64,000 nucleotides of DNA from an uncultured Clostridia bacterium (GCA_944391865.1 CALXVD010000004.1:6615-70614), one strand, 5' to 3'; shown: positions 20,660 through 23,943, counted from the stretch's first letter. A program made the numbers and translations. The notes: generated by a model not told the origin, from the sequence alone.

Positions 20660-22132
20660 CTATGTGCTTTCTATAATTATCTTTCTATTGTCGGCATTCT
20701 TCTTTTTTATTTCATCAGCTCTGTACGAACGAATTATATATTTATTTTTATTGTCAAATCTTATAATTACTGCTTTTGTATAATCATTATCTTTTACTTC
20801 ATGTTTTTCTTCTATCATAAGACTAGCTTTACATTCACTTAAGGTCTCAAATGTAGTCATAAAACCTATTCCACTTCCACCGACATCTTTATGTGTTGTT
20901 ATTTGTTCTAATCCCAATTTTAATAATGTATCTATTTCAAACTCTATACCACTATCATATATACAAAGCTCATAATGTCTATTTTTCTTTCCTAATATTG
21001 CAAAAATGTTTCTATATTTATTTTCACTAGAATTAACTGCAATTATTGCATCTTTTATGTGGTCACCTATTAATGTTTCTAATTTATTTTTAGGAATTAT
21101 GTTGTTTATTAAATAATATATGTTACCTTCTATTTTTAATTTAAAGTCTATATTATTATTTGAACACTCTGTCTGCATATATTTAAAGATATCGTCTATT
21201 TCTGAAACATTTGTAGCTGGTAATACAACTTTAGTTTTTATTCTTTGTAACGCTTCAGAATACTCTGTCGTAAGACTTTTTATTCTATCTAAAAGTTCTG
21301 TTTTTTCTTCTGTTCCGATATTAGCTTCTGATACTTTTAACTCTAACGCCTTCTGTCTATTATAAAATTCATGACTTGCTTTGCTCACATTAAATGCTTC
21401 ATCTGACAACTCCTTTAATTTATCTTCCTTTTCTTGTAAATCTTTTTTATACTCATTTATTGTATCGTCCAATAATTTTTGTTTGTAATACATAACTAAT
21501 GTTTTTTGTAAAATTATGAGCATAAAAATTCCTAATATTACAAAATAAAAATATATATGCTCTATTATCTTTTCAAAATTATTTCCTATTAATCCATAAA
21601 CTAAAATTATTATTGCACTAATGTTAATCATAGCTATTTCTATAAATTCATTATCTTTTTGCAAAAATGATAATCCTTTCTTTAACCTTTTTGCCTTTGA
21701 AATTAAAATTAATATTATAAATTCTATAGCTAAAGTTAATACTAAGTTAATTGTTTTGCTATCAATACTGAATAAAGCTTGTAATGCAAATTCAATTGTA
21801 CCTGCAAGAATAAACAGAAAATAAGAGAATGAAACTGAAATAATAGTAGAAATCAAAACTCTTGATAGCTTTAATTTTGTCAAACTACTCAATAACATTG
21901 ATTCTAAAAAATATAAGATAATAATAGTACTTAATATGTCAGAAACACTTCTTAATATACAATATAAAAAAGTAAGGAAAACTATTAATAATCCAGTTTT
22001 AATTCTTTTTATATTGTCCATTTCTTCATAATTATTAATTTTAAAAAAAATCATAAATAAAAAAATATTTATAAAAAAACTTTTTATAATTATATTAAAA
22101 ATATCTATACTAATCATATAATAACACCTCAT
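20660..22132 (-). CDS. AgrC/HPK10-like membrane sensor histidine kinase (module A)
   Basis: About 485 aa with an N-terminal polytopic domain, a coiled linker, H-box SHEFYNR and a GHKL ATPase (IGDHIKDAIIA, GGSGIGF). The likely start is the ATG at 22117 after GAGGTG. Confidence 0.8.
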   Translation of the reverse strand: MRCYYMISIDIFNIIIKSFFINIFLFMIFFKINNYEEMDNIKRIKTGLLIVFLTFLYCILRSVSDILSTIIILYFLESMLLSSLTKLKLSRVLISTIISVSFSYFLFILAGTIEFALQALFSIDSKTINLVLTLAIEFIILILISKAKRLKKGLSFLQKDNEFIEIAMINISAIIILVYGLIGNNFEKIIEHIYFYFVILGIFMLIILQKTLVMYYKQKLLDDTINEYKKDLQEKEDKLKELSDEAFNVSKASHEFYNRQKALELKVSEANIGTEEKTELLDRIKSLTTEYSEALQRIKTKVVLPATNVSEIDDIFKYMQTECSNNNIDFKLKIEGNIYYLINNIIPKNKLETLIGDHIKDAIIAVNSSENKYRNIFAILGKKNRHYELCIYDSGIEFEIDTLLKLGLEQITTHKDVGGSGIGFMTTFETLSECKASLMIEEKHEVKDNDYTKAVIIRFDNKNKYIIRSYRADEIKKKNADNRKIIIEST

Positions 22133-22165
22133 TTTATGGATGTTATTATTATATATATAAAATAA

Positions 22166-22218
22166 AAAGTAATCAATATATTATTTTTGTTTCAATATAA
22201 TATTTTGATTACTTTTTT
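22166..22218 (-). terminator. long hairpin plus T-run between the mini-ORF and the kinase gene (terminator/attenuator)
   Basis: About 20-bp arms AAAAAGTAATCAATATATTA / TAATATTTTGATTACTTTTT, followed by TTTTATTTT on the minus strand. Confidence 0.5.
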
Positions 22219-22222
22219 ATTT

Positions 22223-22264
22223 TTATAAACTAGCTATGTACATTATCCACTCCCAGAAGCTCAT
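22223..22264 (-). CDS. 13-codon mini-ORF MSFWEWIMYIASL (candidate signalling or leader peptide, module A)
   Basis: GGAGGTG lies 6 nt upstream. It sits between the regulator terminator and the kinase gene. Paralogous MSFWEWIRYWFGL lies at 36907-36948. Not in the ORF track. Confidence 0.5.
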   Translation of the reverse strand: MSFWEWIMYIASL

Positions 22265-22290
22265 TTAAAACACCTCCATTGCATTTTTTT

Positions 22291-22332
22291 GATAGCAAAA
22301 AAATATCACTTATACTTGTTTGTATAAGTGAT
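22291..22332 (-). terminator. rho-independent terminator after the Spo0A-like regulator gene (module A)
   Basis: ATCACTTATAC-loop-GTATAAGTGAT followed by ATTTTTTT on the minus strand. Conserved at 36975-37015. Confidence 0.7.
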
Positions 22333-22385
22333 TAATGGAAGTGCAATTGTTTTACTATAAGTTACACTTTGTGACAAAAAATGAC

Positions 22386-23177
22386 TTAAAGTTGCTTCTT
22401 TATCTTATCTGCATAATAATATATAAATTCTGTTGGAGTTGGAATTCCAGTTTCATAATTAATTCTCGCAGTATAATATGTACTCAAATCCTCTAATGAA
22501 GATATTCTCCATGCGTGTAAAATTGCATTTTGCATTGCTCTACTAATAGTGCTATTTGATTTTTTATATTTACTTACTAAATACTGAATTATTGTAATTT
22601 TTTTATTAGTATTTTCATTTTCTATTATATATTGAATTGAATCAAATAAATATTTTCTTCCTTGCAAATGTGTACTAATCCCTATTAAGTCCAATTCTTT
22701 GTTAATTTTATCAACTATAATTTCTTTACTATCTCCTATTTCTTCTTTTATTTCTTCATGTATAGTATTACTTTTATATTCTCTAATTAAAAGTATTGTG
22801 TTGATTACGTCTTCTTGTGAATAATTACTTTGCTTTTTATAAAAAATAAAGTCAACTACATTTCTATGTAGATATTCATAAACTGAATTGGAATATATAT
22901 TAGTTGTTACTATTACTTTAGGAATAATAGATAGTTTTACCTTTTTAAGTTTTTCTAGGAAACCGATTCCTGTTCCAGTACCATTTCCTTTATTTAATTC
23001 TAAATCTAAAATAATTCCTTCCGGCATATATTTTTTTACGATTCTTAGTCCTTCGGTTTCAGAATTAGTTATTGCTATAAACTCTATATCTTTCCTGTTC
23101 TTACTTATTTCTTTGAAAATATAGCATTCGTTTGCGTCATCTTCTATTAATAATAATTTCATCGGCTTATTTTCCAT
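22386..23177 (-). CDS. Spo0A-like response regulator (receiver plus Spo0A_C DNA-binding domain), module A
   Basis: 263 aa. The receiver has LLLIEDD and ILDLEL. The C-terminus GISTHLQGRKYL...SRAMQNAILHAW...PTPTEFIYYYADKI aligns with Spo0A GVPAHIKGYLYL...ERAIRHAIEVAW...PTNSEFIAMVADKL. Confidence 0.8.
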   Translation of the reverse strand: MENKPMKLLLIEDDANECYIFKEISKNRKDIEFIAITNSETEGLRIVKKYMPEGIILDLELNKGNGTGTGIGFLEKLKKVKLSIIPKVIVTTNIYSNSVYEYLHRNVVDFIFYKKQSNYSQEDVINTILLIREYKSNTIHEEIKEEIGDSKEIIVDKINKELDLIGISTHLQGRKYLFDSIQYIIENENTNKKITIIQYLVSKYKKSNSTISRAMQNAILHAWRISSLEDLSTYYTARINYETGIPTPTEFIYYYADKIKKQL

Positions 23178-23311
23178 TTTGTTACTCCTTTGAATTTATC
23201 ATTTTTTATTATATTATCATAAAATTCAATAATTTAGTATTATTTTTTATCACTTTTTATACTTTTTTGTAACATATAATAAATTAAATAATATATTAAA
23301 GAGGTATTTGT

Positions 23312-23629
23312 GTGAAAGAAGAAATTGGAAAAAGAATAAAAGCTATACGTGAAAATCTGAATATGACAAAGGAAGAATTTGCAAGAGTTATTGGTATATC
23401 AGGTCAATATTTGGGTATTGTTGAGCGAGGGCAAAGCTGTTTATCAATAGAAAAAATTAAAGTTCTCTGTGATTTTACTAATTTATCTTCTGACTTTATT
23501 TTATTTGGTAAAGACGAAAATTTAATAAATAAAACTAAAAAGAATTTAGCTGGACTAACAGATGCTCAATTAGAAGCAGGTTGTAGAGCATTAAACGATT
23601 TAGCAATATTTATTAGAGCTAAAAAATAA
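23312..23629 (+). CDS. XRE-family helix-turn-helix regulator (module A)
   Basis: 105 aa, GTG start, HTH_3-like IGKRIKAIRENLNMTKEEFARVIGISGQYLGIVERG. Confidence 0.8.
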   Translation: MKEEIGKRIKAIRENLNMTKEEFARVIGISGQYLGIVERGQSCLSIEKIKVLCDFTNLSSDFILFGKDENLINKTKKNLAGLTDAQLEAGCRALNDLAIFIRAKK

Positions 23630-23630
23630 C

Positions 23631-23692
23631 GTCAATATATTATTTTGTTTTGAAAGTAATATATTGACATTATTTAACTCCTTTGGTAAAAT
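23631..23692 (+). promoter_or_regulatory. 12-bp inverted repeat overlapping a TTGACA-17-TAAAAT promoter for the small downstream gene
   Basis: GTCAATATATTA-N14-TAATATATTGAC, with -35 at 23664-23669 and -10 at 23687-23692. The same layout occurs at 38318-38379. Confidence 0.5.
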
Positions 23693-23712
23693 ATGTCAAA
23701 GGAGTTGTTGAT

Positions 23713-23943
23713 ATGTTAAGTAATATTGATAAAACAAATTCTAAAGCACTAAAAAAACTGATGAATGACCCTAAATACCAACAAAATAAAATGCAAATAA
23801 ATTGTATAACCAAAGTATTGGTAGAACACGCTGATATTCCACAAAAGCTTATAGATTGGTTAATTCAATCTGTACAAGATAATGTCGTTATTGAATATAA
23901 ATTATTAAATTGCAAAGGTCAAAACATACAAAAAGTACATTAA
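23713..23943 (+). CDS. small conserved hypothetical protein (module A partner of the XRE regulator)
   Basis: 76 aa from the ATG after AAAGGAG. Paralog at 38422..38652 (shared QNxMQIxCIxxVLxEHADxPxxLIDWLIxSV). Confidence 0.6.
   Translation: MLSNIDKTNSKALKKLMNDPKYQQNKMQINCITKVLVEHADIPQKLIDWLIQSVQDNVVIEYKLLNCKGQNIQKVH

Follow-up and report, generated by a model that had tools for sequence, protein, structure and literature searches.

A candidate leaderless-peptide two-component module with a Spo0A-type response regulator in uncultured gut Clostridia

A 64,000-nucleotide stretch of contig CALXVD010000004.1 (positions 6615-70614) of an uncultured Clostridia bacterium (GCA_944391865.1), hereafter the window and numbered from its first letter, carries a compact group of signalling genes, module A. 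On the minus strand it has genes for a polytopic histidine kinase, a 13-codon tryptophan-rich mini open reading frame (mini-ORF) and a response regulator (RR) with a Spo0A_C output domain, while genes for an XRE-family regulator and a 76-amino-acid protein lie divergently on the plus strand. On balance, the module is probably a self-contained, autoinducing two-component circuit that senses a leaderless peptide, and thus an undescribed quorum-sensing-like cassette. A literature search covering Spo0A_C (PF08769) regulators, Spo0A-linked quorum sensing or non-ribosomal peptide synthetases (NRPS), and leaderless clostridial signalling peptides returned nothing on the cassette or its peptides, and the module is apparently uncharacterised, as had been proposed in the original prediction made from the sequence of the window alone.

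Gene content and recurrence of the module

All five ORFs of module A were found at or near the coordinates first proposed for them, including the two divergent genes (Table 1). A second copy, module B, had been predicted elsewhere in the window and its presence was confirmed by DNA identity to module A of 74% over 1.6 kb, from the small protein gene through the seventh codon of the mini-ORF, and of 70% across the cytoplasmic half of the kinase. The corresponding protein identities are 73% for the RR, 58% for the XRE regulator, 52% for the small protein and 61% for the C-terminal part of the kinase. Both modules share the order small protein, XRE regulator and then, divergently, an RR consisting of a receiver domain (REC) and Spo0A_C, the 13-codon ORF and the polytopic kinase. 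The kinase gene of module B has one in-frame TAA codon (35958..35960) in the cytoplasmic loop between transmembrane helices (TM) 5 and 6, where the translation reads …KKGLLF*QNKIDNDY…; this may reflect a pseudogene, an error in the sequence or stop-codon read-through.

Table 1. Features of modules A and B and of the neighbouring NRPS region (positions in the window)
Feature	Position	Strand	Remarks
Module A	20660-23943		kinase, mini-ORF and RR on minus; XRE and small protein divergent on plus
Kinase A, polytopic histidine kinase	20660..22117	-	485 amino acids; ORF runs to 22132 (490 codons)
Terminator-like long hairpin and T-run	22160..22217	-	after the mini-ORF
Mini-ORF A	22223..22264	-	13 codons, MSFWEWIMYIASL; putative leaderless signalling peptide
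Conserved leader RNA A	22262..22356	-	95 nt, upstream of the mini-ORF
Phased 0A-box-like direct repeats	22341..22376	-	TGTCAC, TGTAAC, AGTAAA, TTGCAC; 10-nt period; immediately behind the stop codon of the RR
RR A, REC and Spo0A_C	22386..23177	-	263 amino acids
Divergent XRE/RR control region	23178..23311	.	conserved motif AGTATAAAAAGTGATAAAAAATAATAC; extended -10-like TATGATAATAT
XRE-family helix-turn-helix (HTH) regulator A	23312..23629	+	105 amino acids; divergent from RR
Small helical protein A	23713..23943	+	76 amino acids, most likely extent
Module B	34941-38652		gene order as in module A
Kinase B	34941..36416	-	one in-frame TAA
Insert in module B	36417..36905	-	489 bp between peptide gene and kinase; no counterpart in module A
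Mini-ORF B	36907..36948	-	encodes MSFWEWIRYWFGL
Leader RNA B	36946..37039	-	three-helix fold as in A; 85 bits, z = -6.7
RR B, REC and Spo0A_C	37069..37854	-	261 amino acids; 73% identity to A
XRE regulator B	37995..38312	+	ORF opens at 37932; likely start MKKEIGARIK
Small protein B	38422..38652	+	76 amino acids; 52% identity to A
NRPS	13169..20555	-	order C-A-T-C-A-T-R (terminal reductase)
Kinase-NRPS gap	20556..20659	-	104 nt; co-oriented; no terminator
HisKA_7TM membrane domain	12032..13153	-	far side of the NRPS
HATPase_c ORF	11376..12023	-	may form a split kinase with the HisKA_7TM ORF
Receiver protein	10326..11306	-	326 amino acids; second signalling system beyond the NRPS

The arrangement recurs in dozens of other genomes, which places it far beyond chance. 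One genome per species was scanned and 80 loci were returned, all of them in metagenome-assembled genomes (MAGs) of uncultured low-G+C Clostridia from human, mouse, rabbit and ruminant guts. Components were counted around the 70 RR genes that had enough flanking DNA. The kinase lies just 3′ of the RR in 63 of these and an XRE gene lies divergently upstream in 66, while a tryptophan-rich mini-ORF of 12-17 codons occupies the gap between RR and kinase at no fewer than 60 loci, and all three components accompany the RR at 58. The mini-ORFs of three loci (L044, L086 and L088; L numbers are those of the survey) were missed by the script and found by eye. Both proteins of the two-component pair are also abundant in larger collections, with more than 1,300 relatives of the RR (E ≤ 1e-10) in a set of 5.8 billion proteins, and 1,106 clusters at 50% identity matched by the kinase profile (E ≤ 1e-10), nearly all of them of 480-500 amino acids. 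The layout with a peptide gene, a kinase and an RR, which had been likened to peptide quorum-sensing cassettes, is therefore a recurrent one.

The fifth gene does not share in this conservation. The family of the 76-amino-acid protein is present at about 12 loci, an unrelated 99-amino-acid family takes the same place at about 13 and a third family at four, with nothing recognisable in that position at the remaining loci; only two further homologs of the small protein were detected in the database of 5.8 billion proteins. Comparison of the first two families with hhalign was negative. What had been described as a five-part module is thus conserved as a core of four parts, namely XRE regulator, RR, peptide and kinase. 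The XRE regulator of module A has an HTH_3 domain (E = 1.4e-11) followed only by a tail of about 40 residues, while the AlphaFold2 (AF2) model of the small protein consists of three helices with no structural match in the Protein Data Bank (PDB). The suggestion that these two might form a pair resembling SinR and SinI is not supported: BLASTP gave no alignment between them at E ≤ 100, the small protein has no match to SinI in Pfam, the structure search was negative and the small protein is not generally conserved.

Several genomes carry two modules. Loci that depart from the full arrangement are of two kinds. Tandem duplications were seen at L001 (6001..8298 and 9216..11754), L031 and L027; in these the first copy has its RR and kinase genes 10-25 bp apart with no peptide gene and the second copy has one (MSFWEWLAYWLK). 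There is also a sub-branch of orphan Spo0A_C paralogs without a linked kinase or mini-ORF (L059, L061, L062, L063, L077, L081, L084), usually with a divergent XRE gene, which is absent in L077 and L084.

An origin in defence systems or mobile elements was considered and rejected. Phage and plasmid records contained only true Spo0A at 21-26% identity, no relative of the family was detected in IMG/VR, and PADLOC returned generic XRE matches only.

Peptide gene, leader RNA and signalling proteins

The mini-ORF of module A is preceded at a distance of 6 nt by a GGAGGTG ribosome-binding site and is flanked by a hairpin with U7 (22305..22332) on its upstream side and by the long hairpin with its T-run on the other. 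The strong ribosome-binding site and the flanking terminators first proposed are thus both present, and the ORF itself is conserved across loci. Examples of peptides encoded in other genomes are MSFWEWLAYWFGL, MSFWDWVRYWFGL, MTFWELIRYWFGV, MWDDFWKWILYWCR, MSWEEIWRIIERIMGA, MSLYEAFLRWLNKWI and MGWYDELIEWVRKWFR. They are 12-17 residues in length, begin directly with a conserved M-S-F-W-E-W, are neutral to acidic and not cationic, and have a composition with 20.8% Trp, 0.2% Cys and no Pro. No leader, signal sequence, tail or double-glycine (GG) site was found in the peptide sequences across loci. In the MSFWEW class, with 24 distinct sequences, synonymous changes occur in the codons for Ser, Phe, Glu, Tyr, Gly and Leu while the residues are kept, a pattern which identifies the mini-ORF as a genuine conserved gene under selection at the amino acid level. 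The pattern of residues fits an amphipathic helix of four turns with a narrow acidic or basic face.

It is worth considering whether the peptide product matters at all, as the mini-ORF could be a cis-acting leader peptide whose translation, for example through stalling at Trp codons, controls read-through of a terminator into the kinase gene while the product itself has no function. The mini-ORF is rich in Trp codons, its Shine-Dalgarno sequence (SD) is structurally gated as described below, and a hairpin with a T-run follows it at 50 of 62 loci, starting at a median of about 16 nt past the stop codon. However, the entire amphipathic residue pattern is kept through synonymous changes and not the Trp codons alone, the C-terminal half of the peptide diversifies together with the sensor of the kinase, a promoter-like site is situated between terminator and kinase, and no alternative anti-terminator pairing overlapping the ORF was seen. 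In module A, the promoter-like site for the kinase (TTGATT-17-TATAAT, 22176..22148) overlaps the hairpin behind the mini-ORF. This explanation is therefore considered highly unlikely.

The comparison of the two modules also connects the peptide with the membrane part of the kinase. Their DNA homology ends exactly at codon 8 of the peptide (22243) and is found again only from about kinase residue 142 onwards; therefore the C-terminal half of the peptide and the first four to five or so helices of the sensor constitute a single hypervariable block, similar to that of agr. Averaged over 62 loci, sensors are about 31% identical to one another (mean distance 0.69), whereas kinase cores reach about 51% and RRs about 54%. 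The peptides closest to that of module A are those of L050 (MSFWEWLMYAAGL) and L048 (MSFWEWIRSIISL), and these loci have the sensors most similar to that of module A (48%) though their RRs are only 59-60% identical to its own; in L010 and L012, on the other hand, the RRs are 75-78% identical and the sensors only 31-33%. Peptide and sensor distances were correlated in a partial Mantel test controlled for kinase and RR (r = 0.17, p = 0.002). As the peptide shows an about equal partial correlation with the cytoplasmic core of the kinase (r = 0.19), the test fails to single out the sensor, and its significant but modest signal is taken as supporting evidence only.

Between the RR gene and the mini-ORF lies a conserved leader RNA. 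In module A, an anti-SD sequence CACUUCC (22337..22343) can pair with the SD GGAGGUG (22271..22277) of the mini-ORF, and the resulting helix encloses the 11-bp hairpin with U7 mentioned above, which also appears in the list from the terminator scan, together with a helix formed by a U-run and an A-run. RNAalifold applied to 33 loci predicted the hairpin and the anti-SD:SD helix each independently. The hairpin is 96% paired, with compensatory changes in seven of its 11 pairs. Eight sequences have GGUGGUG as their SD, and in these a U-A pair of the anti-SD:SD helix is replaced by A-U. The covariation score of 0.233 was reached by none of 500 shuffles (slid controls gave 0.06-0.09), and the G-U wobbles are consistent with an RNA transcribed from the minus strand. 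Folding of single sequences gave z-scores of -7.1 (module A), -6.7 (module B), -6.7 and -3.9. A covariance model of the leader (R1) scored 92 bits in module A and 85 bits in module B, the two leaders that were expected and the only matches in the window, while in 1.19 Mb it gave about 50 matches with E < 0.01, virtually all just 3′ of an RR gene. No family in Rfam matches the leader.

Type I toxin mRNAs typically have their SD sequestered by a 5′ element, and short Trp-rich amphipathic peptides are often membrane-active. The peptide could accordingly be an output of the system and not its signal, that is, a membrane-active toxin, a bacteriocin or a type-I-toxin-like product under two-component control, as it is short, Trp-rich and amphipathic and its SD is sequestered in this manner. 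However, the peptides are neutral to acidic and, with 12-17 residues, too short to span a membrane, neither a conserved immunity gene nor an antisense RNA was found, and the strict position between RR and kinase together with the covariation with the sensor favours a role in signalling. This possibility is regarded as very improbable; it and the cis-acting leader peptide are disfavoured because the residue pattern is conserved, the peptides are neutral to acidic and the hypervariable block lies where it does.

The leader overlaps an array of short direct repeats resembling the 0A box. Across loci, three to four such repeats (TGTCAY, TGTAAY or TGTCGN) are situated between the stop codon of the RR gene and the anti-SD with a period of 10-11 nt, and at some loci the 0A box is found in its literal form, as TGTCGAA or the complement of this. 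A strict two-box pattern is present in 23 of 68 homologous regions compared to 0.38% of background windows (p about 1e-38). A strict three-box search for RR sites gave no match in the window because the boxes are degenerate. These features suggest that the RR may bind the phased repeats. At L022 (about 3100..3180) and L023 (about 6480..6560), the array consists of literal reverse-complement 0A boxes (TTTCGACA every 11 nt), which are oriented opposite to the TGTMAY boxes of most loci. The control region between the XRE and RR genes contains, in an alignment of eight loci, box-like repeats T(G/A)T(A/C)A(C/T) that were read by eye, and the motif which the divergent intergenic regions of both modules had been predicted to share is present in each.

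The RR possesses a complete Spo0A_C domain (E = 1.8e-17, covering positions 1-104 of the 104 of PF08769), and its profile matches the structures of the Spo0A DNA-binding domain 1FC3 and 1LQ1 at about 1e-10, which bears out the output domain originally proposed. The score of its REC domain is just under the Pfam cut-off; nevertheless its profile matches receiver structures in the PDB, and the catalytic residues D13, D14, D58, T91 and K114 are invariant in 16 members of the RR family. Against TIGR02875, the equivalog model of Spo0A, the RRs of the two modules score 86.8 and 89.9 bits. As the cut-off of this model is 200 bits, the protein is a Spo0A-type paralog and not Spo0A itself; its identity to annotated spo0A genes is 21-26%.

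The kinase gene of module A probably starts at 22117, a position preceded by an SD (GAGGTG) and in agreement with homologs and called genes. The protein has no match in Pfam (E ≤ 0.1) or NCBIfam and is labelled "hypothetical protein" at NCBI. The AF2 model (mean predicted local distance difference test, pLDDT, 75) shows seven hydrophobic helices (2-32, 40-63, 66-85, 89-121, 126-145, 162-182 and 186-about 210), followed by a dimerization and histidine phosphotransfer (DHp) domain and a catalytic and ATP-binding (CA) domain; the last of these helices belongs to a long one, 186-269, which bears H254 and leads into an alpha/beta domain. A Lys/Arg-rich loop at 146-161 would place the N-terminus outside. 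Foldseek against the PDB returned at probability 1.0 only the DHp and CA structures of histidine kinases (among them LvrB, HK853, ZraS, CpxA and KinB) and, together with the AF2 model, this identifies the protein as a histidine kinase by fold. The sole match by sequence in the PDB, obtained with a profile search, is a weak one to the sporulation kinase KinB (E = 0.13).

In an alignment of 20 homologs the N-terminal 200 or so residues of the kinase are very variable, while the motifs NHEFYNRQKALE, GDHxRDAIIA, YDxGxEF and GGxGxGF are invariant. The H-box NHEFYNRQ is of the HE-x-x-N type, with H254-E-F invariant (ORF numbering). In the GHKL N-box, both Asn positions are replaced throughout the family by invariant Asp (GDHxRDAIIA, residues 357-361, ORF numbering), which is unusual for an ATP-binding histidine kinase and may be the reason why domain models overlook the family. 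The kinase had been described as similar to AgrC and to the HPK10 family. It is indeed a polytopic sensor, with seven predicted TM and no extracellular domain; membership of HPK10 is not borne out, as neither HATPase_c_5 nor any other Pfam domain was matched and the H-box is not of the H-D type. Its likeness to AgrC is architectural only.

Proposed circuit and genomic surroundings

On these grounds the following mode of action is proposed. The Trp-rich amphipathic peptide of 12-17 residues would be made without a leader and, with no exporter or protease dedicated and linked to it, would arrive outside the cell or at the membrane interface either through an unlinked general exporter of small hydrophobic peptides or by spontaneous partitioning into the membrane; this step is the weakest link of the proposal. 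There the seven membrane helices of the cognate kinase, a highly variable domain, would recognise it, and the kinase in turn would phosphorylate the REC domain of the Spo0A-type RR. The phosphorylated RR may then bind the phased 0A-box-like repeats upstream of the peptide gene and the similar repeats in the XRE/RR control region, leading to activation of the peptide gene, positive feedback and control of a genome-specific regulon. The terminator-like hairpin and the anti-SD:SD helix would shield the peptide gene from transcripts reading through from the RR gene, so that the peptide would be translated only from transcripts of its own promoter, which would sit 3′ of the anti-SD. The divergent XRE regulator, in some lineages with a small partner protein, would set the basal state.

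A number of observations weigh against this proposal. The genes downstream of the kinase at about 70 loci fall into 130 clusters, the largest of which has five members, with no conserved exporter, processing gene or target gene among them. While this agrees with the original prediction that the module has no processing gene of the AgrB or ABC type, it also means that secretion of the peptide is assumed and that no common regulatory target was found among these genes. A scan for sigma-70 promoters of the peptide gene performed no better than shuffles (35 found, 32.7 expected). To these may be added the correlation of the peptide with the kinase core, as large as that with the sensor, the replacement of Asn by Asp in the N-box, which makes the catalytic competence of the kinase only presumptive, and the fact that every carrier of the module is an uncultured MAG.

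Some of the same observations would suit a peptide that is not secreted and acts inside the cell or at the membrane as a feedback modulator of its own kinase or RR, within an ordinary two-component system that responds to the environment. Known analogues are the small proteins Sda and KipI, which act on sporulation kinases, and MgrB, which acts on PhoQ. The absence of a linked exporter or processing gene, the lack of a signal or leader sequence in the peptide and its covariation with the cytoplasmic core, about as strong as that with the sensor, are all in keeping with this, as is the nearest, though weak, relative by sequence in the PDB, since that KinB structure is from a complex with the inhibitor Sda. 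However, it is the membrane sensor, and not the DHp and CA core, that the hypervariable region joins to the C-terminal half of the peptide, and pairs of signal and receptor typically diversify in a pherotype-like manner and occur in multi-copy modules. In addition, the tandem first copies without a peptide gene adjoin copies that have one, which fits a shared diffusible signal. A modulator confined to the cell is accordingly considered quite unlikely, and the autoinducing circuit is retained as the preferred explanation.

The gene downstream of module A encodes an NRPS, and control of this pathway by the module had been suggested on the basis of adjacency and orientation, both of which hold. 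The NRPS has condensation (C), adenylation (A) and thiolation (T) domains and a terminal reductase (R), with the order C-A-T-C-A in the ORF next to the kinase, and its architecture may resemble that of the dipeptide-aldehyde/pyrazinone NRPS family of gut Clostridia. The short gap without a terminator between kinase and NRPS contains an exact 0A box TGTCGAA (20642..20648, plus strand), one of only three in the 64-kb window, which together with the co-orientation would suit a dedicated, pathway-specific regulator. However, the gap also has a promoter-like site that would serve the NRPS itself (TTGAAA-17-TAAAAT, 20630..20602), and the NRPS is split by a frameshift (around 15580-15594) just past the GKPK motif of its second adenylation domain into ORFs of 1653 and 803 amino acids, a split also seen in the independent record L007. 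Furthermore, a second two-component system flanks the NRPS on its other side, and a tblastn search over all related loci found the NRPS in this same organism only, with no such neighbour elsewhere in the family. Module A may control the NRPS, but this is not supported beyond its position and is not a property of the family; that module A is a dedicated regulator of the pathway seems unlikely.

The window has a G+C content of about 26% and nearly all of its genes are on the minus strand. Between the two modules (28329..33798, minus strand) are three genes for sigma factors of the sigma-70/ECF type, one of them paired with a DUF4179 anti-sigma-like gene, as well as genes for a DUF2207 protein and a KilA-N-domain protein. 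The insert between peptide gene and kinase in module B contains a terminator and a GC-rich repeat and has no match in Rfam. It appears to be a repeated element with the GC-rich hairpin GGGGTCGACGTCCTCGGCGACCC, partial copies of which occur elsewhere in the window (3342..3419), in L011 (8969..9117 and 6826..6937) and in L010 (1368..1412), including the equivalent position in the module of another genome. A c-di-GMP-I riboswitch (79.7 bits) was identified at 61633..61725 on the minus strand, upstream of a 223-amino-acid ORF (60940..61611).

Relation to known systems and significance

The closest parallels are with the agr system (AgrBDCA) of staphylococci and clostridia, which likewise has a small peptide gene beside an RR and a polytopic kinase without an extracytoplasmic domain, direct repeats upstream of the peptide gene, and a hypervariable cassette that links peptide and kinase sensor and exists in multiple specificity variants. 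The module differs in having no AgrB, in a kinase that is not of the HPK10/HATPase_c_5 type, in an RR with Spo0A_C in place of LytTR and in the order RR, peptide, kinase. Its peptide of 12-17 residues has no leader, tail or Cys, and without Cys a thiolactone is impossible. With ComCDE and BlpCHR of streptococci it shares a putative signal that is as long as mature CSP or BlpC and, like them, has the character of an amphipathic helix, and which is paired with a membrane kinase and with an autoinducing regulator that binds to direct repeats, though in the module such binding is only presumed. Unlike those systems, it has neither a GG leader nor a peptidase-ABC exporter of the ComAB/BlpAB type (C39), its kinase and regulator are of other families and Spo0A_C again stands in place of LytTR.

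The Rgg/SHP and ComRS (XIP) systems are similar in possessing a very short peptide gene without a canonical signal sequence or linked exporter and an aromatic, Trp-containing peptide. PptAB is a general transporter that exports SHP and XIP, and export of the module peptide could likewise use an unlinked general transporter. However, in those systems the peptide is imported by Opp and then meets a cytoplasmic HTH-TPR receptor, whereas the sensor linked to the module peptide is a membrane kinase, and the only HTH protein of the module, the XRE regulator, lacks the peptide-binding repeats of Rgg and the other RRNPP receptors. In NisRK and SpaRK a ribosomal peptide may be both product and inducer of a two-component system; the module differs from these in having no modification, transport or immunity genes, and its peptide could not be modified by lanthipeptide chemistry because it has no Cys.

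With Spo0A and its orphan sporulation kinases (KinA-E and the clostridial orphan kinases), the module has in common the architecture of REC and Spo0A_C, a retained recognition-helix signature (STISRAMQNAILHAW compared to SRVERAIRHAIEVAW in Spo0A), the HE-x-x-N type of H-box and repeats resembling 0A boxes. The RR is not an ortholog of Spo0A, as its scores and identities described above indicate, and unlike Spo0A it is multi-copy, genetically linked to its own kinase and peptide and without linkage to sporulation genes. Judging from its gene content, the module would work like the peptide circuits of agr and Com, yet it lacks AgrB, a GG leader, HPK10 and LytTR.

A more far-reaching possibility, rated as somewhat less likely than not, is that these modules represent a new class of Gram-positive cell-cell signalling, in which an unprocessed, leaderless Trp-rich peptide that requires neither a protease nor an exporter of its own is read by seven-helix kinases and relayed to duplicated Spo0A-type RRs, with many pherotypes across the gut Clostridia. 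If so, Spo0A_C would not be unique to the sporulation master regulator, and a widespread family, its kinase alone comprising more than 1,000 clusters at 50% identity, would be added to the small catalogue of peptide communication systems in Gram-positive bacteria. The leader with its anti-SD and terminator would be a new cis-regulatory RNA motif. The seven-helix kinase family is invisible to current domain libraries and is found in never-cultured gut lineages. Multi-copy REC-Spo0A_C paralogs of the kind described here will cause both Spo0A and the capacity to sporulate to be called too often in metagenomes where such calls are based on domains. The minimal parts list of peptide, kinase and regulator makes the module directly testable with synthetic peptides, and its parts may be attractive for orthogonal circuits in synthetic biology.

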